A stretch of 64,000 nt of DNA from Minisyncoccota bacterium (GCA_035438505.1 DAORIM010000001.1:7808-71807); one strand, 5' to 3'. Counted from the first letter of the stretch, positions 1,127 through 36,106 are shown. Made by a program: numbers and translations. Notes: generated by a model not told the origin, from the sequence alone.

Positions 1127-1671
1127 AGCTCGATGAGGCGCTGCGTCGCGCCGGACTGAATTGAGAACGAAGCTGACTCTCCTTCGTCAGTCGTCATGGT
1201 GCCCGACACCACGAAGGTAACCTGCGGCTGCGTCGAGTCCCCCGTCCCAACCCCGCGCACATAGAAGCGGAGTGTGTCGACGTCTATGCGTTCGTCCGTA
1301 AGGGCGACCGATGAAGAATCGTTGCACACTCCCGAGCCAATACACTGCCCGATACTTTTGTCAGCACGCAATCGGTACTGCACTTCCTCTCCCTCACTAT
1401 CCAGGAACGAAATAGTTGAGCCTCCCGCTGAACAGTTCGTAGCCCCATTGCAGGAATATTCGCTCCCTGTGCGCATTGAACGCGCCATGCTCTCGACCGC
1501 AAACGAAAGTGTTGCGGCGAGCTGGTTATTCGCCCGCGCCTGCCTATCAAGACTAATGAGCGTTAAGTACGCTCCCGTCACCACGAGCATAACCACGCTG
1601 AAAATACCGAGCGAAACGATAAGCTCTAGGAGGCTATAGCCGCGCTGTGTTGGGGTATGGATCATGGGCAT
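1123..1671 (-). CDS. prepilin-type N-terminal domain protein (putative minor pilin)
   Basis: N-terminus TQRGYSLLELIVSLGIFSVV (G|YSLLE) pilin-like leader and helix; operon context. Confidence 0.55.
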   Translation of the reverse strand: MPMIHTPTQRGYSLLELIVSLGIFSVVMLVVTGAYLTLISLDRQARANNQLAATLSFAVESMARSMRTGSEYSCNGATNCSAGGSTISFLDSEGEEVQYRLRADKSIGQCIGSGVCNDSSSVALTDERIDVDTLRFYVRGVGTGDSTQPQVTFVVSGTMTTDEGESASFSIQSGATQRLIEL

Positions 1672-2369
1672 GCGCTCGTTCCTTTTTGTACCACCGACAC
1701 TTGCCCGGCCTTTGATACCAAGACACAGCGCTCGGCAGTCTCATCCGGCGATGTTATGCGTATCGTTGCGTCCGACAATGCAACGCGATTGCTGCTGCCT
1801 GCACTGACGCCTGTTATGATCGACTGCGTATTGGGACGGAGGTATACGATATGTATCGATTCAAGACGAGTTGTCGTTTGCGCGCTGTCTGAACACTTCT
1901 CTGTACCTGAATCCTTGCCGCAGAAGCTCTTAATCTTAAAGCCATTGTTAAGCGTGCTTCTACGTACAATTTCCGTCGCATTGTTTTGAATACAGTTCCC
2001 TGGCTTCGCTTCTGGATGCGAACTCGCGACGCTTGGGTGCCCTGGACACAAACTAGGATTTCCCGTATCTCCCGGTTTTGCGGGGTTGGTGTCTGCAAAG
2101 AGGACGTAGGACGTTGGCGTTGTACGCGCAAAGCTAATGCCATACCCGGCATTCGTTGTTGCTCCTGCTGCGCGGCTCGAAATGCCGTAGGACTGCGCCT
2201 CGCGTATAGAAAATGCGATGGTATACGCGATATCAGTAAGGACGAGCGAGCGATTAAACGTCGTCTGTCCCAAAAGCGCGATGGCCGTAATGATTACGAT
2301 GATGGCGAGCACCACCAGCATCTCAACGAGTGTAAAGCCTCTTACAGGCCGATTGATAAAGGGTTCCAT
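1662..2369 (-). CDS. prepilin-type N-terminal domain protein (putative minor pilin)
   Basis: N-terminus RPVRGFTLVEMLVVLAIIVIITAIALLG, canonical type IV pilin leader; directly downstream of pilD. Confidence 0.6.
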   Translation of the reverse strand: MEPFINRPVRGFTLVEMLVVLAIIVIITAIALLGQTTFNRSLVLTDIAYTIAFSIREAQSYGISSRAAGATTNAGYGISFARTTPTSYVLFADTNPAKPGDTGNPSLCPGHPSVASSHPEAKPGNCIQNNATEIVRRSTLNNGFKIKSFCGKDSGTEKCSDSAQTTTRLESIHIVYLRPNTQSIITGVSAGSSNRVALSDATIRITSPDETAERCVLVSKAGQVSVVQKGTSACP

Positions 2370-3100
2370 TGTGTGAAAAATGCGAGCAGGTATCCAAGTG
2401 CGAGAAATGGCACGAAGGGAACCTCAATACCCATTCTATGCCCTACCGGGCGGCTAACCAATATAGCGATGCCGACAACAGCGCCGATCCAAAAGGAGAA
2501 TAAAAGTCCTGCAATAGCCTGGTATGGACCAATAAGCAGTGCGAGTGCGAGTGCGACGGGCGCGTCCCCGAGCCCCATAGCCCTGCCCCGCGAAAACGCA
2601 TGAAGTGCCCAGAAACAAAGCCCTATGGCGCCTGCCACGAGAAGCGTAAGTCCCACCTCAGAAACACTACGCGATACCAGAAGAGCGTAGACTCCTGAGA
2701 GGAGTGTGAGCAACGTGGATGCAAGAGGAGGTACAACCGTATGCCGAAGGTCATAGAGCACAATAAACGCAAGAACGCTCAGTGCAGCAAGGAACGCAAC
2801 CAGGGGAAGACCGAGTCCTAGAGAGAGGTACGAAAGTGCAAACAGAACGCCAAGTACCGTCTCCCCCGCTGCGTACATGCCCGTAACCCGCGCGCCGCAA
2901 CAGCGCGCCCTTCCGTTCGCCGTAAGCCACGAAAGCACTGGGATCAGATCACGCGCGCGCAGTGGCTCAGCGCATGAGTTGCAGCGCGAACGATCGCGCA
3001 CCCACGACTGACCGGTGTAAATGCGCTCGCTCATAACAGCAGCGAAGCTCGCAATAATCATGCCGAGGATTAGGAAGGTGAACGCAATGAGCCAGGTCAT
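2342..3100 (-). CDS. pilD: prepilin peptidase (A24 family aspartic peptidase/N-methyltransferase)
   Basis: Polytopic membrane protein; N-terminal CxxC...CC zinc-finger-like segment (CNSCAEP...ARCCGA); conserved GLGDA motif and 8 hydrophobic segments typical of PilD/PulO. Confidence 0.8.
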   Translation of the reverse strand: MTWLIAFTFLILGMIIASFAAVMSERIYTGQSWVRDRSRCNSCAEPLRARDLIPVLSWLTANGRARCCGARVTGMYAAGETVLGVLFALSYLSLGLGLPLVAFLAALSVLAFIVLYDLRHTVVPPLASTLLTLLSGVYALLVSRSVSEVGLTLLVAGAIGLCFWALHAFSRGRAMGLGDAPVALALALLIGPYQAIAGLLFSFWIGAVVGIAILVSRPVGHRMGIEVPFVPFLALGYLLAFFTQWNPLSIGL

Positions 3101-3181
3101 AGAATGTTCTATGAGTATACCGCTCTCGATACAAAAACAGCGCGTAATGCACGCGCTGTTTTTGTGACTACATGTGTATCC

Positions 3182-3652
3182 TTACGGACACGTAACGTCA
3201 CTCGCTGAAATAGCGAACGTAGTGGTTGTTGTTGATACTCCCGTTGAGTCAATGCAGAAATATTGGGTTGAAACGGACTTCAGTGGCACGGATGCGGCCC
3301 ATCCAGATCCGTTCGAGGTTACGAAACACGTTTCTGCAATGGAATCTCGTGCAGCAACGGTCTTCCCTTGTGCTACTAGTGCTGCTTCAATTTTAGGTCC
3401 TGCCTGTCCCGCAGCAGTGCCGCACACGCTGGCATAGCTGTTATTATTGGTGTCATACCAGAGCTCTCCTTCCGTGCGAGCGCTTGAAAGGTTCGACTTG
3501 ATAGCAGCGTCTGCGCCGCGGTTACGCGCGGTGTTGAGAGACGCGAGTACGACGGACGAAAGGATGCCGATGATGGCGATAACCACGAGAAGCTCGATGA
3601 GCGTGAAGCCTCGCGCGGCGGACTGAGAAGTGCGGTCTGCGGTAGTAGTCAT
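3182..3652 (-). CDS. pilA: type IV pilin (major pilin paralog 1)
   Basis: ARGFTLIELLVVIAIIGILSSVVLASLNTARNRG... canonical T4a pilin N-terminus; C-terminal Cys pair (CIDS...DVTCP) for the disulfide-bonded D-region. Confidence 0.8.
   Translation of the reverse strand: MTTTADRTSQSAARGFTLIELLVVIAIIGILSSVVLASLNTARNRGADAAIKSNLSSARTEGELWYDTNNNSYASVCGTAAGQAGPKIEAALVAQGKTVAARDSIAETCFVTSNGSGWAASVPLKSVSTQYFCIDSTGVSTTTTTFAISASDVTCP
3489..3613. repeat. 125-bp direct repeat (copy 1) covering the conserved N-terminal coding region of the tandem pilin genes
   Basis: Sequence aggttcgacttgatagcagcgtctgcgccgcggttacgcg...gagcgtgaagcc is identical here and at 4030-4154. Confidence 0.85.
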
Positions 3653-3754
3653 GTATCTACTATACCGGCAGCGGACGCAATCTCAATGAAAGATGTGGAT
3701 AGTACGAAAGAAAGCCGCAATGCGGCTTTCTTTCGCTTCTAACCGGGCTGTGGG

Positions 3755-4180
3755 TTAGCAGGCGATGTCGTCAGCGGCCGAAATGGTATCGGTGCTTGTT
3801 GTTGTTGCGTTGCCCATGTAGTCAACGCAGAAGAACTGCGTCGTGCTCTTGAGCTGGGCATTTGCTGCCCATCCAGTTGCAGTATCTTCACACTGCACAT
3901 TTGTTCCGCCTGCGTTCGTCGTTGCTGTGATGAGTCCAGCAATGTTGTTGGTGCCGGACGCACAAAGAGTCGTGTAGGTGTTGTTGTTCGAGTCATAGTA
4001 GAGCTCCGCCTGCGCGCGCGCGTTTGCGAGGTTCGACTTGATAGCAGCGTCTGCGCCGCGGTTACGCGCGGTGTTGAGAGACGCGAGTACGACGGACGAA
4101 AGGATGCCGATGATGGCGATAACCACGAGAAGCTCGATGAGCGTGAAGCCGCGGCTGGTCTTTATGTGTCCAAGTGTCAT
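3755..4180 (-). CDS. pilA: type IV pilin (major pilin paralog 2)
   Basis: SRGFTLIELLVVIAIIGILSSVVLASLNTARNRGADAAIKSNL identical to paralog 1 over ~45 aa; divergent Thr/Asn-rich C-terminal domain ending ...DDIAC. Confidence 0.8.
   Translation of the reverse strand: MTLGHIKTSRGFTLIELLVVIAIIGILSSVVLASLNTARNRGADAAIKSNLANARAQAELYYDSNNNTYTTLCASGTNNIAGLITATTNAGGTNVQCEDTATGWAANAQLKSTTQFFCVDYMGNATTTSTDTISAADDIAC
4030..4154. repeat. 125-bp direct repeat (copy 2) in second pilin gene
   Basis: Exact nucleotide identity with 3489-3613. Confidence 0.85.
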
Positions 4181-4278
4181 GAGTATAGGTAAGAATGGTA
4201 ATGCGCAGGAAGGGTACCTATCGCTTTGTGTATTGTACGACAGTACCCCTCTCCCTCCCTGCGTAATGTGGATAACGT

Positions 4279-5487
4279 CTAGGAAATCGAGCCTGCGAGG
4301 TTGTAGATCGGGATAAGCACGGACGCAAGAAGCGTACCCACACCAAGACCAAGAAGTACGATCATCATCGGCTCAATGAGGTCCACAAGCGTATCCACGG
4401 CGGTCGTAACCTCGCGCTGGTAGAACTTCGCAAGGGTCTGAAGAATATTCCCGAGCTCGCCGGTTTCCTCGCCCACGCGCACCATAGCGGTCATGATACC
4501 CGGAATCTCTGCGTGCGCTCCTAGGGCGTCTGAAATGCTCGAGCCTCCCTTCACCGCCTCAGCAACCTCCTTAAGCAGGTTTTCATAGGTCTCGCTTCCA
4601 ACCACGGACGCGGTAATCTCAACCGCCTCAACTACAGGTACACCCGAGACAAGCATTGTTGCGAAGTTGTCAGCGATGCGTGAAAGGTAGAGCTTGCGGT
4701 ACAGGTCCCCTATATACGGCACATCGAGCTTAAGACGATCGAAGAAGAGGCGTCCAGACTCCGTCTGAAGTGCGCGGTACGCGAAGAACGCAGCGACCGC
4801 CATACCGATAAGGAAGAAGAAGCCGTAGCTAACAAGGAAATCAGAGACGGCGATAACAACTGCGGTATACACCGGAATTTCCTGTCCCGAGTCTTTGAGG
4901 ATGCTTGAAATGCGCGGGATCACGAGCGTAAGCATGAGCCCCATAACCACGAAGAACACAGCGATCACGAATGCCGGGTAGATCAGCGCATTCTGCGCCT
5001 TCGTCATCACTTCGTACGTTCTATCAAGGTAGTCTGCGAGATAGCCGAACGTTTCAGAAAGCTTTCCGGACTCTTCGCCGGAACGCACCATGTTTACGTA
5101 AAAGTTTGAGAATACCTTCGGATGTCGCGCGAGCGCTTTGGAAATAGGACTTCCTCCCTGAAGATCGTCCGCAACCTGCGTCATGATCTCCGTGAGGTAC
5201 TTGTTATCAACCTCGCTCGCAAGGAGGCGGAAGATGCGGAGTGCCGAGACCTGTGCCTCGAACAGGGTCGCTATCTGGCGCGAAAGAATAACGATGTCTT
5301 TGTTCGAAACGCGCTTTAAAAAACTAATTTCAATACTGAGCGCTGACTTTTTTTCCGCAGGCTCGATCGAAGACACAATGAGTCCGCGACGCTGCAGCGT
5401 TGACACGGCAACATCCACCGAGAGCGCCTCAACGGTGCCCGCTCGTTCGTGTCCGTCTTTATCAAGTGCGTGGTAGCTGAAGAGCAT
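4279..5487 (-). CDS. pilC: type IV pilus assembly platform protein (GspF/PilC family)
   Basis: 402 aa, duplicated GspF-like domains, three TM segments, typical PilC length and position between pilT and pilA. Confidence 0.85.
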   Translation of the reverse strand: MLFSYHALDKDGHERAGTVEALSVDVAVSTLQRRGLIVSSIEPAEKKSALSIEISFLKRVSNKDIVILSRQIATLFEAQVSALRIFRLLASEVDNKYLTEIMTQVADDLQGGSPISKALARHPKVFSNFYVNMVRSGEESGKLSETFGYLADYLDRTYEVMTKAQNALIYPAFVIAVFFVVMGLMLTLVIPRISSILKDSGQEIPVYTAVVIAVSDFLVSYGFFFLIGMAVAAFFAYRALQTESGRLFFDRLKLDVPYIGDLYRKLYLSRIADNFATMLVSGVPVVEAVEITASVVGSETYENLLKEVAEAVKGGSSISDALGAHAEIPGIMTAMVRVGEETGELGNILQTLAKFYQREVTTAVDTLVDLIEPMMIVLLGLGVGTLLASVLIPIYNLAGSIS

Positions 5488-5543
5488 TACTTACTAGCTT
5501 ACGGCCTAACAAGGCAACCGGAAAGGCCTATCATTTGATAGCC

Positions 5544-6611
5544 CTAGAGATACCGCTCAAACGTCTTCGGATCGTTGGCGCGCTCGTACGCGTGTTCGAT
5601 CGTAACTTCGCCGCGGCGTACGAGTTCCGCAAGCGAACGATCCATGTCGATCATGCCTTCCTGGGAGCTGGTCTGTACCACGGTTGCAATCTCATGGGTG
5701 CGTCCCTCGCGAATAAGGTTCGCGATAGCGCTGTTGTTAATCAACAGTTCGTACGCAGGAAGCTGGCCTCCGGCGATGCGCGGAATAAGTCGCTGGGAGA
5801 AAATGCCGGCAAGGGATCCTGCTAGCTGCACGCGTACCTGGTCCTGCTGGTTTGGCGGGAACATATCGATGATACGGTCGATAGTCTGCGACGCATTGTT
5901 CGTGTGCAGGGTTGAGAGCACGAGGTGACCCGTCTCAGCTGCCGTAACGGCGCTTGAAATAGTCTCCTGGTCGCGCATCTCCCCCACCATGATCACGTTC
6001 ACGTCTTCGCGGAACGCAGACTTGAGTGCAGCTGAGAAGCTTGGCGTATCGATATGCACCTCGCGCTGGTGGATGAGCGACTTCTTCTGGTCAAAAAGAT
6101 ACTCAATAGGGTCCTCAATCGTCACGATGTGCTCTGCACGCGTTTCGTTGATGCGGTCAATAATCGTTGCAAGAGTCGTCGACTTTCCCTGTCCCACAGG
6201 ACCCACCACCAAGAAGAACCCTTGCGACCTCTGGCTGAATACCTCAAGAATCGGCGGGAGATTCAGGTCTTCAAACGATCTAATCTGGCTTGGGATGAGA
6301 CGCATCGCAATTGCGACGCCTCCCTGCACCGTATAGCCGTTAACGCGGAAGCGTGCCTTCGGGCCGTGTGCGTATGAAAAGTCTATCGCCTGCTCGGTTG
6401 AGAAAATAGCGTAGCGGCTTTCTGGAGCGAGCTCCTTGAGCATGCTTGCAGTGTTCTCCGGCGTGAGCACCGGGTGCTGCAACAGGGGCACGAGAGAACC
6501 GGCGATGCGCAGGATCGGATTGTTCCCAACTGAAAGGTGCAGATCCGAAGCACCTTCGGCAACCACAGTGTCGAGAAGCGACTTTATCTGCGGAGAAAGC
6601 TCTGCGCTCAT
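5544..6611 (-). CDS. pilT: twitching motility / pilus retraction ATPase
   Basis: 355 aa; Walker A GPVGQGKSTT, Asp box, His box, and PilT-specific AIANLIREGR motif. Confidence 0.85.
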   Translation of the reverse strand: MSAELSPQIKSLLDTVVAEGASDLHLSVGNNPILRIAGSLVPLLQHPVLTPENTASMLKELAPESRYAIFSTEQAIDFSYAHGPKARFRVNGYTVQGGVAIAMRLIPSQIRSFEDLNLPPILEVFSQRSQGFFLVVGPVGQGKSTTLATIIDRINETRAEHIVTIEDPIEYLFDQKKSLIHQREVHIDTPSFSAALKSAFREDVNVIMVGEMRDQETISSAVTAAETGHLVLSTLHTNNASQTIDRIIDMFPPNQQDQVRVQLAGSLAGIFSQRLIPRIAGGQLPAYELLINNSAIANLIREGRTHEIATVVQTSSQEGMIDMDRSLAELVRRGEVTIEHAYERANDPKTFERYL

Positions 6612-6997
6612 ACCTTTCCTTCAATGATCTTCATCGTCTCGGAAAAGACTTCAGAAGGAATCGCGGACGCCTTGATGATGTAGCCGTCTGCGCCAAACGC
6701 CTTTGCTTGCTCTATATCAGACTCCTGTCCCTGATTGGAAAGAACGATAACCTTCGTTTCCTTCTTAAGACCCTCGCGCTTAATTACCTCGAGAATTTCA
6801 AATCCCGTCATGCCAGGCATAACGATATCGAGGAGAAGCGCATCTGGTACAGGGCTTTCGCGAAGTGCCTTCAGCACTTCTTCTCCGCCCGGGAACGCGG
6901 TTACCTCATGCCCCGCCGCTTTAAACTTCACGGCGTACATGTCGAGAAGAAAGCGATCATCATCAACGAGATAGAGACGGTACGGTGCAGTAGACAT
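6608..6997 (-). CDS. single-domain response regulator (CheY-like receiver)
   Basis: LVDDD...LLLDIVMPGMTGFE...K receiver motifs (phospho-acceptor Asp, conserved Thr/Lys); no output domain; embedded between pilB and pilT. Confidence 0.75.
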   Translation of the reverse strand: MSTAPYRLYLVDDDRFLLDMYAVKFKAAGHEVTAFPGGEEVLKALRESPVPDALLLDIVMPGMTGFEILEVIKREGLKKETKVIVLSNQGQESDIEQAKAFGADGYIIKASAIPSEVFSETMKIIEGKV

Positions 6998-7009
6998 GGA
7001 AATCTAACG

Positions 7010-8758
7010 TTAGGTAGGCTCTTCTTCTTCGAGCAGTGCTTGGCCTCCCAGCGCATTCACCTCCTCGAACGGAATCAGCCCTGCTAATGCTTTCATGATA
7101 GCATCCTCGCGCATGGTCAACATACCCTTGGCGCGGGCTGCCTCATAGACGCTTTCTTCCGTAGGCTTAGTGAGTACTACGTGCTCAAGCTCTGCGTCCA
7201 TGCGCAGGAACTCAAATACCGCGAGACGTCCACGTGTACCGTTCGGACAATCTGCTGTTGGCTCAGCGCGATAGAACGTTTCAAAGGGCGGCAATTGCGC
7301 ATGAAATTCTTGTGGCAAGTCAGAGAACTCGCGCTCAAGAAGTCCGCGCATACTCTCAGTAAGCGGCACCGGCTTCCCCGCTCCCGGGCAAAGCTTGCGT
7401 ACAAGACGCTGGCCGATTGCAGCGATGAGCGTTGGAGCAATAAGGTACGGATCGACACCCATATCCACGAGACGCGGAATAACTCCTGCTGCGGTATTGG
7501 TGTGAATGGTTGAGAACACAAGGTGTCCGGTGAGCGCCGCTTGAATAGCAAGCTGCGCCGTTTCCTTGTCGCGGATCTCTCCCACCATGATGATGTCCGG
7601 GTCCTGGCGAAGAATCGAGCGCAGACCTGACGCAAAGGTGTATCCAATTTCAGGCTTCACCTGCGACTGCGCGACGCCCTTAATCTCGTACTCAACCGGG
7701 TCTTCAATAGAGACCACGTTTGCCGCTTCGCGATCAAGCTCGGAAAGCATCGAGAAGAGCGTGGTCGATTTTCCGGAACCTGTAGGACCGGCAATGAGGA
7801 CGATTCCGTACGGCTGGCGGATGATATCGCGCACCTGCGCGAGGTCTTTCTCAGAAAGGCCGACGGTCTCAAGTGTTGCTACGGACTTCGCACTATCAAG
7901 AATACGCATCACCACCTTCTCGCCTCCCTGCGTCGGGAAGGTAGAGACACGGAAATCAATTCTTCTGCCTTCAACAGTTGCTGAGAAGCGCCCGTCCTGC
8001 GGCTTGCGCTTCTCATCGAGGCGCATCTGCGAAAGGATTTTAATGCGCGCTACAACTGCTGGATGGACTTTTGCAGGAAGCTCAAGCGAGGTGTGCAGCT
8101 CGCCGTCCATACGGAAGCGCACTCGGGTCTTTTCCGGCGAAGGCTCGATATGAATATCGCTCGCACCTCCCTCAACTGCGTAGCGCAGAATCGTTGCCAC
8201 GATCTTGGTAACTGGCGCATCCGCCTTAATGTTTGTTTCGGCAGCTTCTGCAGCTGGCGTCTTCTCCGCATCAACGTCTATTGGTGCTGCAGCAGAACCC
8301 TCAAACTCTGAAAGCGCCTGCCCCACCTCGCCCGAAAGGTTTTCGTATTCCTTAAGAACGCGCTCAAAGTCTGTCTGCGATACGAGCGACAGCGTATACG
8401 GCATACCGACGCGACTTGATATAAATTGCAGTGCGTCGAGCGCTTCAATATTGTCCGGGTCCACAATACCTACTGAAAGCGCGCCGCCCTCTGCGCTCAG
8501 AGGAATGAATTGATAGTGCCGTGCGGATTCCTCAGGAATATACGCCAGCGCCTTATGATCTTTGAGCTCCGCAGGAAGCGAAGTAAATGGCATGCCGTAC
8601 TTCTCACTCGCAATGCCGTATGCCTGCGCTTCCGTTATGCCCCGCTTTTCAAGTGCGGAAAGGAGTGTGCTGCCGGGCGCACGCGACTCCGCGTCGACAC
8701 TTGCCGCGTCTTCAGCGCTGAGCACTCCTTTTTCTGTAAGCAACGCGAGAAGGTTCAT
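7010..8758 (-). CDS. pilB: type IV pilus assembly (extension) ATPase, GspE/PilB family
   Basis: 582 aa; N-terminal GSPII_E_N-like domain, Walker A GPTGSGKSTT, Asp/His boxes; longer than PilT, as expected for PilB. Confidence 0.85.
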   Translation of the reverse strand: MNLLALLTEKGVLSAEDAASVDAESRAPGSTLLSALEKRGITEAQAYGIASEKYGMPFTSLPAELKDHKALAYIPEESARHYQFIPLSAEGGALSVGIVDPDNIEALDALQFISSRVGMPYTLSLVSQTDFERVLKEYENLSGEVGQALSEFEGSAAAPIDVDAEKTPAAEAAETNIKADAPVTKIVATILRYAVEGGASDIHIEPSPEKTRVRFRMDGELHTSLELPAKVHPAVVARIKILSQMRLDEKRKPQDGRFSATVEGRRIDFRVSTFPTQGGEKVVMRILDSAKSVATLETVGLSEKDLAQVRDIIRQPYGIVLIAGPTGSGKSTTLFSMLSELDREAANVVSIEDPVEYEIKGVAQSQVKPEIGYTFASGLRSILRQDPDIIMVGEIRDKETAQLAIQAALTGHLVFSTIHTNTAAGVIPRLVDMGVDPYLIAPTLIAAIGQRLVRKLCPGAGKPVPLTESMRGLLEREFSDLPQEFHAQLPPFETFYRAEPTADCPNGTRGRLAVFEFLRMDAELEHVVLTKPTEESVYEAARAKGMLTMREDAIMKALAGLIPFEEVNALGGQALLEEEEPT

Positions 8759-21048: not shown

Positions 21049-21125
21049 CCACCCTTAGCTCAGTTGGTTAGAGCACGGAGCTTATACCTCCGCGGTCCTT
21101 GGTTCGAGTCCAAGAGGGTGGACCA
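21049..21125 (+). tRNA. tRNA with anticodon TAT (tRNA-Ile, UAU), CCA encoded
   Basis: Cloverleaf: acceptor ccaccct/agggtgg, D-arm gctc-agttggtta-gagc, anticodon stem cggag/ctccg with loop cTTATAc, T-arm cttgg-ttcgagt-ccaag, discriminator A + CCA. Confidence 0.6.
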
Positions 21126-23684: not shown

Positions 23685-24094
23685 GGGGGTGACCGGCTTT
23701 GACGGTCCTGTACCTTGAGAGACGTGCGACGCGGTGGAAGTGTGCTGACCACCTAAAAACGTACACACAAATACTTGCAAAGAACACTCTTGCAAGCGTG
23801 AAGTCCCCATACTTCGGTACTAAGGACTTTGCGTTCGCTTACGCGTAAAAGCTTTGCGCTTTCGCCTAAGCGACGTTCATATATTCCCGTTTCTTCAGGG
23901 GGATGTATGGGCGGAATCTTCTGAAGAATCGGTATCAAAGCTCTCCTAGGCTTTGGCTTAAAAGACAGGATTAGGCAGGAGCGTTTTCGCTGACGTTCCT
24001 ATTCTCCTGCTGAAACTTCAACGTTAGCTACGCGTCGTAGACTCGCTCTGAAGACGGGATTCGGACCGGAGTTCGACTCTCCGCACCTCCACCT
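23685..24094 (+). ncRNA. ssrA: transfer-messenger RNA (tmRNA, ssrA)
   Basis: 5' end gggggtgaccggctttgacgg pairs with 3' end cacctccacc giving a tRNA-Ala-like acceptor stem with G3:U70; 3' T-arm ccggagttcgactctccg; internal Ala-rich tag-like frame ...gac ttt gcg ttc gct tac gcg taa; directly downstream of smpB. Confidence 0.65.
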
Positions 24095-25753
24095 CATTTC
24101 ATCGGAAGGCACGAAAGTGCCTTTTCGTGTTTTATCTGTTGGCTTTTTCGAGGTTCTAACTTTTTCTAGAGTTGCAGAGAGGTCCCTTCCTTCGGTTAGA
24201 ACTTGAATTGGCTTCTCTAGCTGTAAAGTCAGTATTCCCTGCTCTAAAACATGTTCCGTACCAAGAGCTGCAATTATTGACCTTCGCTTTTGTAAGCCGC
24301 CCTCAAGAAACTCCTCTCTTGCTCTCTCAGCGAAGGTTAGAAGTCGTTCTGCATCATCAATCCAGGTCTTGAACCTCACCTCAGTAGCTTCAATGCGGTT
24401 TTTAAGCGCTCTTTCATCATCTTCAAGGCGACTGCGCTCAGTTTTATATTCATCTGAACCAATGTCTCCAACTAGTCTCATTTCGAAAAGTCTTTGGAGT
24501 CTTTCAGCCACATCCTTTCGTCTCAGTTCATGAGCATAAAGTATGGAGTCCTTGTCAGTAGCCTCCTTTTCATATTCCTTCTTGAGTTCCGCAATTGCCC
24601 ATGCGTGGAATGCAGGGGCAATTTTTATCGATGATAGAAAGTCTATAAATAGTTCCTCAAGCTTCTTCTCTTCAATTGCCTTCTGCTTGCATGTACGGAT
24701 TTTTCCAGTGCATCGGTAATACGAGTACTCATGGATATTGCCATTCTGTTGCCGTTTTATCTTCTTCTCACACGTGATTCGTGCACCACATCCTCCGCAA
24801 CGCATGAGTCCGACATAAGTGTGCATGTGCTTCTGTGGTTTGGCTGATTTGCGATCAATTATCTGCTGAACCTCATCAAACTGCTCCTTGGTTATCATTG
24901 GGGTGTGCAGACCTTTGTACCATTGGGCTATTTCTGGGTACTTTGCGGGGTATAAGTACCATCCATAGTAGAAAGGATTCCTTAATATGTTGTAGAAGCC
25001 GTGGAGTGAAATGGGCCTCGAAGAAGGGTTTCTTCTGGTCTTCTTGGCCTTTAGCCCCCACTCATTAACAGCAAGGTCATATACCTGATGAGGGGTGTAC
25101 TGACGCGAGAGTATTGCATCGAAGATCTTGCTAACGATTGTGAAGTTTGGCTCGTCAACCTCGCACTGTTCCGGACGGTCATCACGGTATTTTGTGTTTC
25201 TGTATCCTATTGGAGCAAGACACGGCCTGAAGCCTCTAAGTGCTGCTCCTCCTTGACCACGCTTAATATTTTCCCTTAGCTTTCGTATGTACTCGGTTGC
25301 CATTGCTGTTTCAATGGTTCCCATTAGCGAATTCTCTTCAGCAGAGTATTCCCGACTTGGTGTCTTAATGAGCTTTATCGCTCCAGCAATACGCAAGTCT
25401 CCGATTTTCCCTCCTTCCTCGAGATTTCTTGCAAGACGATCATAGTCCCAGCATAAAATTGCATTGGCTTTTCCAGCCTTGATGAACTCGACCATCTCCG
25501 TGAATACGGTGCGTTTGCCTGAAGTAGCAGCCGATTTCTCTTCCGAGAATTCCTTCACTACGTTATAGCCTAAATCGAAGGCTATCTTTCTCATCACACG
25601 GAGCTGGTCTTGTGTCGATTCTACAAACTCATCCTTATCTCTAGCTTCAATCGAGCGACGAGCATAGATAACGAACTTAAAGCTCGCTCTTTCATCCTCC
25701 CTCTTTAGTTTTTGGTTGTATCCAACGTCCGACATATTCTTTTTTGAAAGCAA
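23999..25753 (-). CDS. large serine recombinase (site-specific integrase)
   Basis: N-terminal resolvase catalytic domain (FVIYARRSIEARDKDEF...TQDQ), recombinase domain, Cys4 zinc ribbon (CGGCGARITC...YYRC) and coiled coil; C-terminal ~30 codons run antisense through the tmRNA 3' end. Confidence 0.8.
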   Translation of the reverse strand: MLSKKNMSDVGYNQKLKREDERASFKFVIYARRSIEARDKDEFVESTQDQLRVMRKIAFDLGYNVVKEFSEEKSAATSGKRTVFTEMVEFIKAGKANAILCWDYDRLARNLEEGGKIGDLRIAGAIKLIKTPSREYSAEENSLMGTIETAMATEYIRKLRENIKRGQGGAALRGFRPCLAPIGYRNTKYRDDRPEQCEVDEPNFTIVSKIFDAILSRQYTPHQVYDLAVNEWGLKAKKTRRNPSSRPISLHGFYNILRNPFYYGWYLYPAKYPEIAQWYKGLHTPMITKEQFDEVQQIIDRKSAKPQKHMHTYVGLMRCGGCGARITCEKKIKRQQNGNIHEYSYYRCTGKIRTCKQKAIEEKKLEELFIDFLSSIKIAPAFHAWAIAELKKEYEKEATDKDSILYAHELRRKDVAERLQRLFEMRLVGDIGSDEYKTERSRLEDDERALKNRIEATEVRFKTWIDDAERLLTFAERAREEFLEGGLQKRRSIIAALGTEHVLEQGILTLQLEKPIQVLTEGRDLSATLEKVRTSKKPTDKTRKGTFVPSDEMRWRCGESNSGPNPVFRASLRRVANVEVSAGE

Positions 25754-26156: not shown

Positions 26157-26339
26157 TCACATCTTTTCGAGGTCATACCTTAGCTCTTCAAGACGCTCCT
26201 TGGGGTCCCCATAAATGGCTTTGTAGAGGTTCAGTATGAGCAAAGCCTTGCGGTGGAGTTCCTCATCCGTTAGCTCTTCCCCAAATTCTTGGAGATAGAT
26301 TTGGTGGAAGTCGTTGAGACTGTTAGCGTCCAGTGCCAT
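26157..26339 (-). CDS. hypothetical small protein
   Basis: 60-aa acidic ORF, stop overlaps the primase-helicase start (translational coupling). Confidence 0.3.
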   Translation of the reverse strand: MALDANSLNDFHQIYLQEFGEELTDEELHRKALLILNLYKAIYGDPKERLEELRYDLEKM

Positions 26340-28279
26340 TAGAAGATTGGCTCAGTGTCCTCCTGCACGAAGTTCACCTCTTCAAGGTGGTACTTGTTCT
26401 TCTTCCCCTCCTTGTAGACTGAGAGCGAACCTTCCTCGACCATGCTTCGCAGAGCCTCTCCGATGTTGCGGCTACCCACACCAGTCTCCTCACGGACGGC
26501 CTGGATGATTTCCTCATTCGTATAGTCCTGAATTTGGAGCATGGCGGTGATTGCATCGCGAGCCTCTTCCTTCTTAGTAGTTCGCTCATCGATACTCTCG
26601 TAGCGAAGCTCTACCGGACTTCCGATAACATCTGGGTCTTGAGCAAGTACTACACGAAACTTATTCGTGTTCCGTCCACGTCTCGACTTAACGTGTTCAA
26701 CTTCCAGATTCTGTTCGGACGTCGTGCAGTCCTTCTTCTCCACGGTAATGTGTGAATCGAGACGCCCAGAGTATGCTGACGATCCGCGAAGGCTCTGTGC
26801 TCCTCCACTAGAAGCACCCATGCCGCTTTTACGATGGTGGTGAATGAACAACACAGTTGCTCCTGCTTTCGTGAATCTTTGCATGGCCTCAAGTACCTTT
26901 TGCGCTCCCTCGGCAGAGTTCTCATCTTGGGAGTGCATGGCTGCGAATGGGTCAATGATAACCAAAGCAATATTCTGCTCCTTCACAGTCTGGAGCAGAG
27001 CCTCCATGTCTTCCTTCTTGTCTACCTTGAAGCCGTTAAGGCTGTAGAAGTAAATGGGCAGGTCTTCCGAATAGCCCATCACCTCCATGCGGCGGCGTAG
27101 CTCCCACGCTCCCTGTTCTTCGTCCACGATGAGGACACTGCCTTGCTTCGTCACGAAGTTATCGAGGAAGCTTTCTCCAGCAGCCACACACTTGGCCAAG
27201 TGGAGGAGAATCCAACTCTTGCCGCAACCTGGATGGCCGCTCAGCGCAGTAATGCCTTTCTCCGGTATGAGTCCGTACACGAGAAACTCAGGACGTTCTG
27301 ACTCCGGCATGTTGAGAATGGAAGAGACTGACAGAAGCTGTCGTGTTGGAGTCGTATCAGACACTTCCTTATCAACATAGGTAGTCCCCTCACCTCCCTG
27401 GGCATGTTGCTTCTGGGCGATACCGCGAAAGATAGACTTCACCTCACTGTCTGGAAGAGGTGGATCGTTCGCTTTATCGTTCCAAGCAAGTACCGTAGGA
27501 AGTACGAAAGTGTCCCAGTCTTTGGACGGCAAGTGGTGCAGGAGCTTGCCGACATACTTCACGGTAGAGTCGTGCCTGTTCCCCTCCTTCGCTCCTCCAA
27601 CGATAGCCTCCCAATCTGTAGCCTCCTCATACTTGGCTTGTCGCCTCTCTTCGATGTCTGCAAGCCACTTCGGCATTTGCGGCAGGTCTTCCGTGATATC
27701 GAGAGGCTTAATCCATTCGTACGCTTTGCCCGTCTTCGGATGAATTGAAGGAGGGACAACCACATAACCTCCATCAGCCTTCATGTCTCCATGAATGCCG
27801 TATGCTCCGAGCGGACCAGATTTAATCTCGTCCACGAGGTATGGATAGTCGTAGAAGTAGTGCCAGCCTCCTCCGCCCGTCCTGCTAATCGCAGTTGGTG
27901 GCAGTTCGTACTTAGACGGGTCTTCATCCGATTCGAGGTCAAGCACGGCAAGGCCATGAACATATCCCGTAATCATCCCCAAGCCAGTTATTCTGTCTCC
28001 GTAGGTCTTAAACCACTGACGCATCTCATCCGGCGTGGGTGCCTTACCCTGCTGAAAGTCCTTCCATGATGGAATGACTGGGACCTTGCCATTGAGCGGG
28101 ATGACCGTTCTGCAGTCATCTAGGTATGCGAGTGCTGCTTCTAGCAATGTTTCAGAATGGGAGGTCATCTTCTGTCTTGTTATCGGCACCCTCATCCTGC
28201 TTCTCGATGATGCGCTGGATAAGATCTGATACCACTTGAGAGTTTTCCTCTCCCCAGAGAGCAGGTACCAGCACCACAC
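26339..28279 (-). CDS. bifunctional primase-polymerase (Prim-Pol) / RecA-like (RepA/AAA_25) replicative helicase
   Basis: N-terminal Prim-Pol motifs (LDLESDED acidic triad region, GGGWHYFY); central P-loop ATPase SGHPGCGKSWILLHLA with VLIVDEEQG Walker B; C-terminal winged-helix-like tail. Confidence 0.7.
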   Translation of the reverse strand: MWCWYLLSGERKTLKWYQILSSASSRSRMRVPITRQKMTSHSETLLEAALAYLDDCRTVIPLNGKVPVIPSWKDFQQGKAPTPDEMRQWFKTYGDRITGLGMITGYVHGLAVLDLESDEDPSKYELPPTAISRTGGGGWHYFYDYPYLVDEIKSGPLGAYGIHGDMKADGGYVVVPPSIHPKTGKAYEWIKPLDITEDLPQMPKWLADIEERRQAKYEEATDWEAIVGGAKEGNRHDSTVKYVGKLLHHLPSKDWDTFVLPTVLAWNDKANDPPLPDSEVKSIFRGIAQKQHAQGGEGTTYVDKEVSDTTPTRQLLSVSSILNMPESERPEFLVYGLIPEKGITALSGHPGCGKSWILLHLAKCVAAGESFLDNFVTKQGSVLIVDEEQGAWELRRRMEVMGYSEDLPIYFYSLNGFKVDKKEDMEALLQTVKEQNIALVIIDPFAAMHSQDENSAEGAQKVLEAMQRFTKAGATVLFIHHHRKSGMGASSGGAQSLRGSSAYSGRLDSHITVEKKDCTTSEQNLEVEHVKSRRGRNTNKFRVVLAQDPDVIGSPVELRYESIDERTTKKEEARDAITAMLQIQDYTNEEIIQAVREETGVGSRNIGEALRSMVEEGSLSVYKEGKKNKYHLEEVNFVQEDTEPIF

Positions 28280-30726: not shown

Positions 30727-31611
30727 CTACTTACTCTTGAAGTTATTGATGGCATAGGACAGGATGGCACCAATAATGTCTTGATTCCCTGGTTGTGTGT
30801 ACTTAACCATTTTCTGCTTAGCTTTGTTGATTTCCGAGAAATAAACTCCGTTGCTCAAGACTTGAACATCAAGGAGCTTATTGAGCTTTATGGAGAACGT
30901 CTTTCCGTCTCCCCTAAAGACAACTCTCTTATTCGTTATCACCAATTCACCAGTACCAACGGGTACGAGTCCAGTCTCGCTAACAAGGTGTCCCCTAGAA
31001 CCTCCTACCCTATAGCTAACTCCCTTTGCGATTCTAAGACTCACTCCCTGCGATCCTCCTTCGTAACGGCGCTTGATGACTTTCTCCTCAATAAGCTGCG
31101 CTGGCTCTGCCCAATAAACCTTTTCGTCCTTTTCAGTTATCAGGTTAGGCACGAAAACTTCGGGAATATTTCCCAATTGAATCTCGTTCAATAGACGAAG
31201 TCGAGCTAGCTCCTTCTTATTTTGTGCAATCTCAACATCAGATATTCCCAGATGCTTCTGGATTCGAATCAGCTCTTCTTCCTCTTCCTTCGTAATCTGC
31301 CCGTCTGACTTCGCACTCACAAGTGCGGTCTGGTATGCACCAATCTTTGCGCGCTTTGTTTCTTCGTCAGTTAAGCCCAAATCACTTTGCCTTTTCTTAA
31401 GCTCTTCGACTTCCTTATCATCCAGTACCCCATCGGCAGCCGCCTCAACAAGAGACATTTCAAATTCCTTTTTATTCAAAGACCGCTGCTTTGATTCTTT
31501 ATATTTATCTGCAATCACTTGAAATATTTTCATGGTTTTAATGTTAAGTGTTTCTAGTCCCACGGCAATACGGGAATCGAGAGCATCCATAGAACTTGCC
31601 GAGACGGCCAC
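30727..31611 (-). CDS. hypothetical protein with N-terminal acidic helical repeats and C-terminal beta domain
   Basis: Repeats KEVEELKKRQSDLGLTDEE / KEEEEELIRIQKHLGISDVE; C-terminal GVSYRVGGSRGHLVSETGLVPVGTGELVITNKRVVF... possibly bPH-like; alternative start at 31533 would remove the overlap with the upstream gene. Confidence 0.4.
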   Translation of the reverse strand: MAVSASSMDALDSRIAVGLETLNIKTMKIFQVIADKYKESKQRSLNKKEFEMSLVEAAADGVLDDKEVEELKKRQSDLGLTDEETKRAKIGAYQTALVSAKSDGQITKEEEEELIRIQKHLGISDVEIAQNKKELARLRLLNEIQLGNIPEVFVPNLITEKDEKVYWAEPAQLIEEKVIKRRYEGGSQGVSLRIAKGVSYRVGGSRGHLVSETGLVPVGTGELVITNKRVVFRGDGKTFSIKLNKLLDVQVLSNGVYFSEINKAKQKMVKYTQPGNQDIIGAILSYAINNFKSK

Positions 31612-34600
31612 TTCTTAGAATCATTCTGGAACTGCAGCGAGGACAAACCTTATCGCTTAAAACAGGCTCAGGCTTGTTAGCTCTCTCAATAATTCTTTTA
31701 CCCTTACATTGCCTACAGAACCTCCCATAGCCAGTGATAAGGGAAGAATCTCTGAAATCCTGGTCCTCTCTCACCTCCTTACACTTCGGACAGACTTTCA
31801 TCTTTCCGTTCTGCAATCCCTGAACAGTTTCGTGAATAGTATGCAGGAGAGGATTCATTCCCGACTCCTCTTTGACTAACCTGCCAAGTCGTTGATTCAG
31901 AGTCTCAATCGGGTTCTCGCCTACATTAAAGCGATTGATGCGGAGGAATTTGTATCCATAGCTCTCAAGAACTTTCTGACGATATACATCTTCGTCCGAA
32001 TAATAATTCTGATAGTTAAACTCATTGATGACATCAACATCCTTGAAATGCTCCTTGAAGCCGTCATATTCGATAACGATCTTATGTTCTCTCCCCTGTT
32101 CGCTTTGGTACGACACCAAGAAATCAACTTTATATGCTGGATGAGAATACGTTGGGTCCAATTGCTTCAAGTACTTCCCAATTTCAAATTGAGGCACGAA
32201 TTCAATTCGTTCTTTGTTGTCATTCCAGAAACTCGTTTGGTAGAACCAGTTTAAGACTTCGGCTTCCTTACCTGACTTCTGGTCTGTTTCTTCAATACCC
32301 TTCTCCTTCTTAGCCTCTTCAAGAAGGTTAAAGTAATGCCTTAGAGCATCTCCTATGGAGCCATTGAATTTATCAAGAGGCTTACTAAGTACAAAGTGTA
32401 CGCATTCTTTTCCACGACTAAAGCCCACATTCAATCGCTGAGCTTTAATCTGACCGTCCTCTTCCACATCAACATTATTGAGGTCTTTTATGAAAATGCC
32501 CCAGAGTCTATCACTATGCTCCGAAGCTACCATTGGGTAGTAGATAATGTCCCTTTCCTCACCCTGACAGGTATCAAAAGTCATTATCTTCAAATCCAGC
32601 TTCTCGAAGTAGAAATCACGTTCTGGAAGCTTATTTATCATCTCGACCAATAGTTTTTGCTGGTTGGTATGTGGGGTAATGATTCCAACGCTCATTTCTT
32701 GCCCCTCTTCCTTCATCCGTTCCAATTCGGAAATGATGAACTCTACTTCTGCCTTGTTGGAGTTTGGGTAGACTTCGTCCTCTGGGGCGGCCTCTATGTA
32801 GGAAAACTTGATTACGTCGTCAATATTCTTGCCGCGTATCTTCATTACCTGGAGACTCTCTTGATAGAAGTACTTGTTCGAGTACGAGATTATTTCCTTG
32901 TAGCCACGGAAGTGTTTCCGGAGCTGGGTCCTGTAATTGCTTATGAACTCTACAAACTCAAGAATAGATGTCTTGATATTGAACTTTTCTAGCTTAACGA
33001 GCTTTGTACCCTCCGTTGAAACGTTCTCCTTAAATGAACGCTCAAGCATATTAAGGTACTCACGATTCGTATCTGAGCGAGCTTGAGCTGCCTTGATGTT
33101 GCTGAACTGCTTCTTATCTCCAAGGATAAGTACCTTCTTTGCTCGAAGAAGTGCCGGAAATGCCTGAGCAATGCTTACCTGCGAGGCCTCATCTATGATG
33201 ACCAGGTCAAACATTTCCTCTTCAAGAGGAATATATTCTGCATAGTCTCTGATACCAGCGAGGATACACGGGAAGGCCTTCTGAAGTTTGCGGAACTGCT
33301 CTTTAGGAAACTTCTGCTTATTCTTAATAACAGCCCTTAATGCCTCAGCATCGGTTCGATTGTGCTCATAGAAATCAATAAGCCTTCCATCCAGAAGATA
33401 TGCAACCTGCGTGATTACCAATTCTTCAATATTCTTCTTCCTCAATGCGTAGTTAAGGTCAGGGATCTCTGAGAATTCTTTTGTGAGCTTCTGCCTGAGG
33501 CTTAAATATCTCAATTGCTTATCAAACAAGAATTCGTCAGAAGAAATAATCAGGTTGCTAAAGAGGCTGGAGAATTCAGCAAAATCCAGACCTGCTTTCT
33601 CAGCTGTTCTCGTGTACTTCTGGGTGAAATCTCTCAGATAAGTAGTCTCCTCTCCGGCTTTTACAAACTCTTTAAGATATTCAGTTCCGCCTTCTTCTTT
33701 CAAAAGGCGGTGAACTATTCCCACGTAATCTAATCCCGTGGAAAGTTTTGTGTTCACTTCCTCTCCAAGGGAATGTATGTAATCGAAAATGGCATATGCG
33801 TCTTTCAGTCTCTGAATTTCCTGATGAGCCATTGCTACCGGGGTGCGGAATGCTTGCCTGAAACGTAGGTCTACTTCTCCAACTTTCTTTTTCTCGAACA
33901 AAAAGCCTACGAGAAAAGCCTTAAGGCTCTCATACTCTTTAATGAAGTCAGCCAACTTCTCTATTTCTTTCTTTGAGAAGGAATCAAAAATGGCTATTGA
34001 ATCAAGTTTCTCTTTGTATATATCCTTTAGCTTCTCGATACTCTCAGAGGCGAGAGAGAGGAAGCGAATCACATTCTCATAATCCTCAACTGTACCGATA
34101 TCTTTGGAATTGACTCCAATTATTTCGAACAGCTCCTTCCCTACTTCCGAGTCGTAAGCTCCCTTAAGGAGGTTGAGCGAAGACCGTGCTTCACTAATTT
34201 CAATAGGAGCCTCTTCAAATGGAAGGGCTTCGTTAATATCAAAGGTAAGTTCTTCTGTATTTATAGAACTCTCTAGGGCGACGAGTTCTTTTACTTCTTG
34301 AATATCAATGTCTTCACAGGCCACTACTTCAGCCTCCAGGTCTTCTCTCAGTGAATTTATAGACTTCTCGATATTCCCCACGATCACCTCATGATTCTTT
34401 CTTACCGCGTGATGGTGGGTCTTAATATCCTGGTAAGTACCTTGAGCAAGAATCTTAGCGTAAGTGTTTCCTGTCTTACCGAGTCGAAGAATTGGGTTCT
34501 GGAAGTTTTCAGCATTCCTGACCTTATTAATCGTCTGGGTAATATTATTTTCAACGACATCCAGAGCTTCTTTCTTATCAGACAAAACGAGTACGGATTG

Positions 34601-36106
34601 CTCTCGAAGAACGGCATCGAAGATAATGGCCGTAATAGTGTGGCTCTTACCAGTACCAGGAGGTCCCTCAATGACTAGATACCGGCATGAGTCTTTCCTT
34701 ATTGCAGAGAGAATTTGAAGCTGTTCTGCATTAAGTGGGATAGGGCTTGAAACTACAAGCCTCTCGGTTATGTCAGTATCATCCCATTCTTTCTCTACCT
34801 CTGGATTACAGGGTTCAGGGTTGTTATAGAGGAAGTCTCCAAGCAGCTTGTTGAAAGATTCGGATAGCAATCCCCCCTCCTCGCCAAGCTGTTTAAGAAT
34901 GTCCTCGTAGTCATTTACAAGAGCCTCATCAGACTTATCGAAGAGCGCTATATAGCAGGAGTTGGTAATCCGTACAGTTGGCCCTTTCGCCACCTGGGCT
35001 TTTTCCTCAACAAATGAGACATTACCCTTCGCTTCAAAGAAGTTGATTATCTCCGTTAATATGACGGAAAGAACTTCTTGAAGGTCAGTCGTGTGCTGAG
35101 CCAGATAAATGATTCGCTCTGTAATTGTTTGAAGGTTCCCCTTTTTCCCACTAAGAACATTGTTCTCCTGGACTATATATTCCAGAGCCTTCTTGTTTAT
35201 GTATATTTGTGAATCAAACTCTAGCGAAAGCACCTCATCCTGTCTCGTTATACTTATCGGCACGTAAAATATTGGGTACTTTGCGTTACCAAAAGCAATA
35301 TCGCCAAAATAAAGGTAGAAGTCCTGCTTTTCTAAAATGCTCCTATTGCGAGACATCTCAAATATCTCCGCAAACAAATCGGCAACCTGTAGACTCTCAA
35401 AAAAGGAATTGAGTGTGCTCTTAACTTCTGAGAGTGCGAAAACGCTCTTTAGTTCTTTCTCAAGATTTACTTTCTCCTTTGCAATAAAAAGATTAAGGGT
35501 CTCAGAAACCCTGCTCTCCACTAGACGCAAGAGCACCTCGGAAAGCTCCTCTTCAACCAGAAAAATATTCCCTTCATCCCCCAATGTGAGGTTCTGTAGT
35601 GGCTTATCAAGCTTTTCAATAAACGGGTCTACCAATTCGACACGGATTGTTGCTCGTGCTGAATCAATTGCCGTATTTAAGGCAATATCGTATTCCGTTT
35701 CGTAAAGTGTACCGAGCCTCTCAATATCCTCCGCGATATTCTTTATTATTTTGTTTATCTGAGCAGCACTTATTTTTTCGACCTGAAGCTTGACCAAGTC
35801 GAGTAAATTCTTAGGTAGCTTTGTTTGATAAACACCCTTCTCTATCTTACTGAGTACATCTCTATCAAAATTCTTATTAACTAAAGACCAGACTAGCTTA
35901 TTGAAAGTTTCGTACTTTTGAAGATTCAAACCGACAAGTAAGTTGTCATTGTTCCTAAATTTAATAGCCCTACGCGGCAATTTCTTCTTGTGAAAATCGG
36001 ACTCCAAGAAGTCCATGAAGTACTTTGCTACATCCTTAAAGAAAAGGAGTCCGTTCTCGGCCGATGGAGTAGGAGTTGTTTGCATGTCTTGAGTTAATAG
36101 TACCAA
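31544..36106 (-). CDS. giant SF1 (Upf1/DNA2-like) helicase with N-terminal DUF4011-like region, C-terminal restriction-endonuclease-like (DUF559/Vsr-like) domain and topoisomerase-type C4 zinc ribbons
   Basis: 1520 aa; Walker A GPPGTGKSHT, LIIDEASQV (AAA_11), TFDTCQGEERDIIYY (AAA_12); C-terminal HKIVIEYDGFKEHF nuclease-like core; CPKCKEV...CRQCKG and CPRCSSRMILRSGRLGKFYGCSRFPYCRGT zinc ribbons; AT-rich codon usage. Confidence 0.75.
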   Translation of the reverse strand: MVLLTQDMQTTPTPSAENGLLFFKDVAKYFMDFLESDFHKKKLPRRAIKFRNNDNLLVGLNLQKYETFNKLVWSLVNKNFDRDVLSKIEKGVYQTKLPKNLLDLVKLQVEKISAAQINKIIKNIAEDIERLGTLYETEYDIALNTAIDSARATIRVELVDPFIEKLDKPLQNLTLGDEGNIFLVEEELSEVLLRLVESRVSETLNLFIAKEKVNLEKELKSVFALSEVKSTLNSFFESLQVADLFAEIFEMSRNRSILEKQDFYLYFGDIAFGNAKYPIFYVPISITRQDEVLSLEFDSQIYINKKALEYIVQENNVLSGKKGNLQTITERIIYLAQHTTDLQEVLSVILTEIINFFEAKGNVSFVEEKAQVAKGPTVRITNSCYIALFDKSDEALVNDYEDILKQLGEEGGLLSESFNKLLGDFLYNNPEPCNPEVEKEWDDTDITERLVVSSPIPLNAEQLQILSAIRKDSCRYLVIEGPPGTGKSHTITAIIFDAVLREQSVLVLSDKKEALDVVENNITQTINKVRNAENFQNPILRLGKTGNTYAKILAQGTYQDIKTHHHAVRKNHEVIVGNIEKSINSLREDLEAEVVACEDIDIQEVKELVALESSINTEELTFDINEALPFEEAPIEISEARSSLNLLKGAYDSEVGKELFEIIGVNSKDIGTVEDYENVIRFLSLASESIEKLKDIYKEKLDSIAIFDSFSKKEIEKLADFIKEYESLKAFLVGFLFEKKKVGEVDLRFRQAFRTPVAMAHQEIQRLKDAYAIFDYIHSLGEEVNTKLSTGLDYVGIVHRLLKEEGGTEYLKEFVKAGEETTYLRDFTQKYTRTAEKAGLDFAEFSSLFSNLIISSDEFLFDKQLRYLSLRQKLTKEFSEIPDLNYALRKKNIEELVITQVAYLLDGRLIDFYEHNRTDAEALRAVIKNKQKFPKEQFRKLQKAFPCILAGIRDYAEYIPLEEEMFDLVIIDEASQVSIAQAFPALLRAKKVLILGDKKQFSNIKAAQARSDTNREYLNMLERSFKENVSTEGTKLVKLEKFNIKTSILEFVEFISNYRTQLRKHFRGYKEIISYSNKYFYQESLQVMKIRGKNIDDVIKFSYIEAAPEDEVYPNSNKAEVEFIISELERMKEEGQEMSVGIITPHTNQQKLLVEMINKLPERDFYFEKLDLKIMTFDTCQGEERDIIYYPMVASEHSDRLWGIFIKDLNNVDVEEDGQIKAQRLNVGFSRGKECVHFVLSKPLDKFNGSIGDALRHYFNLLEEAKKEKGIEETDQKSGKEAEVLNWFYQTSFWNDNKERIEFVPQFEIGKYLKQLDPTYSHPAYKVDFLVSYQSEQGREHKIVIEYDGFKEHFKDVDVINEFNYQNYYSDEDVYRQKVLESYGYKFLRINRFNVGENPIETLNQRLGRLVKEESGMNPLLHTIHETVQGLQNGKMKVCPKCKEVREDQDFRDSSLITGYGRFCRQCKGKRIIERANKPEPVLSDKVCPRCSSRMILRSGRLGKFYGCSRFPYCRGTRNT

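Follow-up and report, generated by a model that had tools for sequence, protein, structure and literature searches.

Nearly all Patescibacteria have type IV pili, which have been implicated in host attachment and DNA uptake. The locus described here raises the question of how two adjacent pilin genes come to have different leaders and different heads and to share, nucleotide for nucleotide, the segment encoding most of the filament-core helix. The genes lie in a window of 64,000 nt (the whole stretch of DNA that we analysed), which derives from metagenome contig Ga0119868_1000037 (JGI 3300014059) and carries on its minus strand a type IV pilus operon of an uncultured Paceibacterota (Patescibacteria/CPR); the exact sequence of one of the two pilins, pilin A, is present at NCBI under a Candidatus Paceibacterota MAG. 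The operon runs in the order PilB, response regulator, PilT, PilC, pilin A, pilin B, PilD and four minor pilins, and the neighbours of the pair (Peptidase_A24, T2SSF and two T2SSE proteins) are those of type IV pilin genes. Its features, all on the minus strand, are as follows.

7010–8758, minus: PilB-like ATPase (ORF and Pfam)
6608–6997, minus: response regulator (ORF and Pfam)
5544–6611, minus: PilT-like ATPase (ORF and Pfam)
4279–5487, minus: PilC-like platform protein (T2SSF; Pfam), directly upstream of pilin A
3755–4180, minus: pilin A (ORF), PilC-proximal major-pilin candidate, 141 aa, mature 130 aa, leader MTLGHIKTSRG
4029–4150, minus: identical tract, pilin A copy (codons for Gly(−1) and Phe1–Asn39, and 2 nt of Leu40)
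3705–3735, minus: terminator-like hairpin after pilin A, perfect 15-bp stem and U-rich tail (fold −29 kcal/mol, z −7.1)
3659–3686, minus: sigma-70-like promoter match TTGAGA-16-TATAGT just 5′ of the pilin B ATG (a consensus match only)
3182–3652, minus: pilin B (ORF), distal major-pilin candidate, 156 aa, mature 141 aa, leader MTTTADRTSQSAARG
3489–3610, minus: identical tract, pilin B copy (the same 122 nt, offset by 540 nt from the pilin A copy)
3435–3613 paired with 3975–4153, minus: wider repeat of 179 nt at 91% identity, spanning the tract and the remainder of helix alpha1
3131–3165, minus: terminator-like hairpin ACAAAAACAGCGCGT/ACGCGCTGTTTTTGT after pilin B (fold −26.6 kcal/mol, z −4.5)
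2342–3100, minus: prepilin peptidase (A24_N_bact and Peptidase_A24; Pfam), directly downstream of pilin B
1662–2369, 1123–1671, 596–1126 and 123–605, minus: four minor-pilin-like genes (ORF and Pfam)

The −10-like hexamers TATAGT and TATACT lie 6 nt and 1 nt upstream of the pilin ATGs (3650–3665 and 4178–4192), and neither ATG is preceded by an obvious Shine-Dalgarno sequence; as a speculation, the pilin mRNAs may be leaderless or may have very short leaders. Elsewhere in the window, a low-GC island at 23685–44000 (41–47% GC vs. 54–56% elsewhere) begins right at the 3′ end of the tmRNA gene (23685–24094) with a large serine recombinase (23999–25753, minus strand), and goes on to encode a Prim-Pol/AAA_25 primase-helicase (26339–28279), a 1520-aa SF1 helicase with a Top1 zinc ribbon (31544–36106), and TerB-like, CYTH, DUF411 and DUF3800 proteins; the island looks like a mobile element inserted at ssrA. 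Within it, the CYTH-domain gene (37047–37607) is flanked by a 59-nt direct repeat at 97% identity (36929–36987 and 37704–37762). A tRNA-Ile with anticodon TAT, which is uncommon in bacteria, was found by ARAGORN at 21049–21125.

Pilins A and B match the N_methyl family of Pfam at 34.7 and 35.5 bits (match of 1.1e-8 for pilin B) against a cut-off of 21.2. Both read RG followed by FTLIELLVVIAIIGIL, a class III signal-peptide signature, and both combine a short basic leader with Gly(−1), Phe(+1), Glu(+5) and a hydrophobic stretch. AlphaFold models (pLDDT 92.5 for pilin A and 86.9 for pilin B) have the same predicted topology, a lollipop made of a helix of ~50 residues and a four-stranded antiparallel sheet; by these models, both proteins fold as type IV pilins. 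Both genes are full length; each begins with a start codon and leader of its own and is followed by a strong terminator hairpin. The two proteins are candidates for major subunits by virtue of their small size, their content of Gly, Ala, Ser and Thr (GAST; 45–46%, and 46.1% for pilin B), their position between PilC and PilD, and their own terminators. Their heads align at 39% identity (E=7e-21) and share four cysteines, which are invariant across homologue alignments, so that the C-terminal domains, described as unrelated in an earlier note on this DNA, are in fact diverged relatives with the same predicted fold.

The same note had placed the two genes at 3182–4180, coordinates that exactly span the two minus-strand pilin ORFs, and had given them a perfect repeat of 125 bp; the longest perfect identity is instead 122 nt (3489–3610 = 4029–4150). 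The tract opens with the complete Gly(−1) codon and closes two bases into the Leu40 codon, thus encoding mature residues 1–40, about three quarters of helix alpha1, which reaches ~residue 52 in the predicted structures. A 121-nt pattern taken from the tract has exactly two matches in the window and zero in 100 shuffles. Sequence that diverged long ago borders the tract on either side, which makes the pair a mosaic: upstream, the leaders (MTLGHIKTSR in pilin A and MTTTADRTSQSAAR in pilin B) cannot be aligned and are essentially dissimilar, as had been claimed, except for the R-G at the cleavage site; downstream, the aligned heads retain 54% nucleotide identity. Codons for the same amino acid differ at 0 of 40 positions inside the tract and at 24 of 43 outside it (Fisher p=1.9e-9), and pS between the paralogs is 0.03 in the N-terminal segment vs. 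0.77 in the head.

The pattern recurs among relatives. Our comparison set, anchored on PilC, was drawn from related Patescibacteria and comprised 80 loci each from genomes and metagenomes; all comparators are metagenome assemblies or MAGs, in which repeats can be mis-assembled. Among the 161 loci including the window, one major-pilin gene follows PilC in 75, two in 40, three in 12 and four in 3. When only pairs with diverged heads are considered (head identity below 0.6), perfect N-terminal runs of at least 85 nt occur in 13 of 89 within-genome pairs vs. 3 of 21,548 between-genome pairs, and such tracts are present despite diverged heads in 13 of the 58 multi-copy loci. The boundary recurs as well: a perfect tract of 85–155 nt whose start lies between −6 and +6 nt from the Gly(−1) codon is present in at least 12 genomes.

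Two genome pairs in which both heads are orthologous across the pair allow paralogs and orthologs to be compared directly. For L001/L002, the N-terminal segments differ by 6 and 4 nt within the genomes vs. 22 and 22 nt between orthologs (dS 0.12/0.06 for paralogs vs. 1.36/1.56 for orthologs); for L063/L064, the differences are 6 and 5 nt within vs. 18 and 21 nt between (dS 0.09/0.13 vs. 0.70/0.95). The N-terminal segments therefore cluster by genome and the heads by ortholog. This is the classical mark of concerted evolution by gene conversion, and it bears out the proposal of the earlier note that the assembly-critical helix evolves in concert; substitutions building up equally in the repeats of related genomes had been named beforehand as the outcome that would speak against it, and the opposite was found. 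In many related genomes the N-termini of the paralogs differ at 20–59 of 120 nt, and no new conversion was seen between the very close genome pairs that were compared; homogenisation in the clade is thus episodic rather than universal. Whole-gene near-duplicates in tandem are also present, in L035 (11305/11994) and L115 (98% head identity) and in the first two pilins of L120 (100%), with identity over more than 400 nt, which means that arrays also grow by recent duplication. In 15 of the 160 related loci a contig end lies within 200 nt of the pilin N-terminal motif (3′ ends in L038, L051, L053, L071, L085, L091, L093, L110, L122, L125, L127, L137, L138, L139 and L141). Since exact repeats of 85–155 nt probably break short-read assemblies, the copy number of tandem pilins in MAGs is probably underestimated.

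The closest relatives of the window's own pair place the divergence of its heads far back. No strict head ortholog (identity at least 0.55) of either pilin was found among the first 160 loci; the ortholog partners, the sister strain L164 (GCA_964480535.1) and L165 (GCA_964511895.1), were found only via later protein searches. The head of pilin A is 0.71 identical to L167_2 and 0.61 to L160, vs. 0.39 to pilin B, and the nearest relatives of the pilin B head are L165_2 (0.59) and L010_2 (0.47); because each head is closer to pilins of other genomes than to the other, the two must have diverged long ago. The tract, by comparison, differs by 1 nt from L164 and at 12 or more of 120 nt from every other genome, the nearest N-terminal sequence among the 160 loci first collected having 12 differences of 120; an exact 63-mer from it had no match in a metagenome contig collection that apparently omits the window's own contig. 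It is 12–13 nt away from the PilC-proximal copies of relatives vs. 18 nt from B-type orthologs, which weakly suggests that pilin A was the donor and pilin B the recipient of a conversion.

Heads, leaders and array positions are not firmly coupled in these relatives. A dozen genomes share a conserved PilC-proximal leader (MTLGHIK...) and conserved sequence upstream of it, and the heads attached to this leader are 24%–51% identical. In L168, gene P0124 carries a B-type head behind the A-type leader MTLGHIKTGRG and adjoins PilC; the contig stops 56 nt past the gene, with only a terminator before its end. L167 has an A-type head in second position, with a very different N-terminal nucleotide sequence. 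Between the window and L164 there are 0 differences over flanks of ~1.5 kb and ~2.9 kb, vs. 12–18% divergence in a block at ~1590–3400 that spans the pilin B head, PilD and a minor pilin, and 26% in the A–B intergenic region (3653–3754). This distribution indicates patchy homologous recombination in the population, and for pilin B against L164_2 the values (dN 0.065, dS 0.99) point to import of a diverged allele rather than to positive selection. Thirteen further differences from L164 fall within 50 nt of PilC (5450–5500), and a stretch of PilB (7100–7650) is 6.7% divergent.

We considered the L164 alignment as direct proof of conversion from A to B and rejected it: the low-divergence island around the pilin B copy of the tract also includes the private leader of pilin B, so that it cannot be attributed to paralog conversion alone, and the breakpoints of the mosaic do not exactly match the tract edges. 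Cassette-like variation between strains does exist at the pilin locus. The suggestion that recombination diversifies these pilins is therefore supported in part, by head types that recur behind other leaders and at other array positions and by the mosaic block over the pilin B head.

Could the identity have arisen without any exchange between the copies? The 40 residues are highly conserved over thousands of Patescibacteria pilins, and purifying selection together with codon bias might be thought to hold the nucleotides fixed; yet pairs from different genomes in which the 40 residues agree fully have a median of 15 nt differences over 120 nt, and L004_1, whose 40 residues are those of pilins A and B, is 13 nt away from their tract; hence protein conservation does not enforce nucleotide identity. 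With the N-terminal dS of orthologs at 0.7–1.6 and long perfect runs essentially confined to within-genome pairs, selection or codon bias alone is effectively refuted, and we regard it as barely credible. Only slightly less far-fetched is an assembly artefact, in which near-identical copies were homogenised by the assembler or two strain alleles of one locus were joined in tandem. The source is a metagenome contig, contigs of 15 of the 160 related loci end close to the pilin motif, and the contig of L082, from a second metagenome assembly (JGI 3300012018), breaks inside the repeat: it is 100% identical to the window over 1,156 nt, comprising pilin A, the intergenic terminator and the pilin B leader, and stops 65 nt into the second tract copy. 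That contig nevertheless reproduces the tandem layout in a second sample, and the layout, with its distinct intergenic terminator and leader, is found again in L164, which has the same two genes, and in dozens of independent assemblies. The tract copies of L164 differ from each other at 2 nt, so assemblers do keep differences within the repeat, as they also did in L015, L002 and L004 (1–6 nt); and the loss of a few SNPs would in any case leave the copies at 95% identity or more, compared with 54% for the heads.

Explanations that do invoke recombination or duplication deserve more weight. A recent tandem duplication of a single gene, followed by replacement of the leader and the head of one copy with foreign sequence, would leave the tract as a remnant of the duplication. 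The whole-gene duplicates in L035, L115 and L120, the recombination hot spot between strains at this locus and the movement of head types among leaders and array positions all lend it some plausibility; but it needs two separate replacements (leader with upstream intergenic region, and head) around an untouched 122 nt, it does not account for the same start boundary in at least 12 genomes, and in L001/L002 and L063/L064 the orthologous heads place the duplication far back while the N-termini were homogenised independently in each genome. We consider this history unlikely. Programmed variation, whether by Neisseria-like cassettes, a Moraxella-like inversion, a diversity-generating retroelement (DGR) or a deletion/duplication switch between the 122-nt repeats, is in our judgement only about half as probable as such a duplication. 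Direct repeats 540 nt apart can recombine into a fusion of leader A and head B with loss of head A, relatives have between 1 and 4 copies, and P0124 of L168 has just such a leader-A/B-type-head combination beside PilC; that contig, however, stops 56 nt past the gene, and the fusion there may not be single-copy. In the window neither pilin gene is truncated, and each has a start codon, a leader and a terminator of its own. No truncated cassette, extra pilin copy or silent cassette was found elsewhere in the 64 kb, nor was any reverse transcriptase-like ORF, and the cluster holds no significant inverted repeats apart from the terminators and no invertase or recombinase by Pfam. Pilin variation of the Neisseria pilE/pilS type was rejected on the grounds that both genes are full length with ATG and leader and that the homogenised part is the conserved helix; an invertible switch of the Moraxella tfpQ/I-Piv type, since the repeats are direct and inverted repeats and invertase are lacking from the cluster; and a DGR, since no reverse transcriptase is encoded in the window and the repeat differs from a TR/VR pair in being perfect and in its place at the 5′ end. 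A programmed form of the pilin switching that the earlier note had raised thus finds no support in this locus.

What is observed is a pair of mosaic genes whose 5′ segment has been homogenised recently, and a pattern that recurs within genomes across the clade. The explanation that we favour, and consider probable by a wide measure, is concerted evolution of the tandem pilins, with the tract homogenised by intrachromosomal gene conversion. Pilins A and B would be old tandem paralogs, as expected from heads at 39% identity with saturated synonymous sites, and the 5′ segment from Gly(−1) to residue 40 would have been recently overwritten in one copy by the other through homology-dependent, non-reciprocal recombination between direct tandem copies. 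On the 5′ side, conversion would be limited by the unalignable leaders, with the tract beginning where alignable sequence begins, at the leader/mature junction; on the 3′ side, it may be limited by decaying homology, by selection against homogenisation of the heads, or by both. The same conversion probably recurs episodically in many related lineages. Its putative outcome is a pair of pilins that are cut by one peptidase and fit one filament core and assembly machine, but show different surfaces; the two could be built into mixed filaments or into alternative filaments.

A bolder extension of gene conversion is that the helix-coding tract serves as a portable recombination handle, which would make the pilin array a self-renewing cassette system in episymbiotic Paceibacterota. 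Three processes would act jointly: conversion would keep the tract identical among tandem copies, unequal exchange would vary the number of copies and the pairing of leader/promoter with head, and DNA uptake by way of the same pilus would exchange heads between strains. Head types behind different leaders, the strain mosaic over the pilin B head and copy numbers of 1–4 are compatible with this idea, which we hold to be doubtful, though a little less so than a recent duplication. If it were true, the array would tune host attachment or phage evasion.

Among known systems, Neisseria pilE/pilS shares with our locus a conserved N-terminus with variable heads and a RecA-type non-reciprocal transfer between pilin paralogs. 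There, however, the donors are promoterless, 5′-truncated and silent, and it is the variable head that is converted, with a diversifying effect; at our locus neither copy is truncated, and it is the 5′ segment for the conserved helix that is converted, with a homogenising effect. Moraxella tfpQ/tfpI is an invertible pilin locus in which the copies lie in inverted orientation and are switched by the Piv invertase; it likewise places alternative C-terminal domains behind a common N-terminal coding segment, whereas the repeats described here are direct and come without invertase or inverted repeats. The pilA groups of Pseudomonas aeruginosa and fimA of Dichelobacter have a conserved 5′ end and strain-level alleles, mostly by single-copy allelic replacement; they resemble our locus in their hypervariable head, conserved N-terminus and flanks, and exchange of alleles between strains by recombination, but our locus differs in having several types as tandem neighbours, with homogenised 5′ ends. 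Tandem flagellin and archaellin paralogs are also closer within genomes than orthologs are between genomes in a conserved, assembly-critical segment; they belong to another filament family, and the tract in the pilins is short (85–155 nt) and sharply bounded at the signal-peptide cleavage site. General cases of concerted evolution in prokaryotes have been described (PMC6053082).

The nearest counterpart is PilE1/PilE2 of Streptococcus sanguinis, tandem major pilins of a heteropolymeric type IV pilus for which co-assembly has been demonstrated and whose differences are confined to the surface (PMC10628169, PMC6497953). In both organisms two adjacent full-length major-pilin genes, or candidates for such genes, lie in one type IV pilus operon and encode an identical alpha1 portion, comprising mature residues 1–40 in pilins A and B. 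PilE1 and PilE2 are, however, extensively identical throughout, whereas the heads of pilins A and B are only 39% identical, and co-assembly of the latter is a conjecture drawn from sequence; the evidence given here for concerted evolution at the nucleotide level comes from Paceibacterota. Closer in phylogeny, Saccharibacteria have type IV pili with small GAST-rich major pilins and roles in host binding (PMC11623550). Theirs too are Patescibacteria pili with small major pilins rich in these residues, but the two major pilins of TM7x belong to separate type IV pilus systems and loci and are not tandem paralogs with a shared tract (PMC11623550).

The shared tract is a genuine feature with firm statistical support. 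The process proposed here, gene conversion, is known, as is the gene family on which it acts; the phylum is under-studied, and the mechanism is not new. To our knowledge, the pilin repertoires of Patescibacteria have barely been described, and we found no prior description of this phenomenon in Patescibacteria in the literature searched, the absence of which is no proof of novelty. Its recurrence across the clade is modestly new, and would not surprise a specialist in pili or molecular evolution. For the Paceibacterota, the finding describes a whole clade with one to four tandem major pilins, hypervariable heads and a filament-core helix that is repeatedly homogenised at the DNA level, and it offers a concrete, testable view of how the surface of these cells could be varied with pilus assembly left intact.
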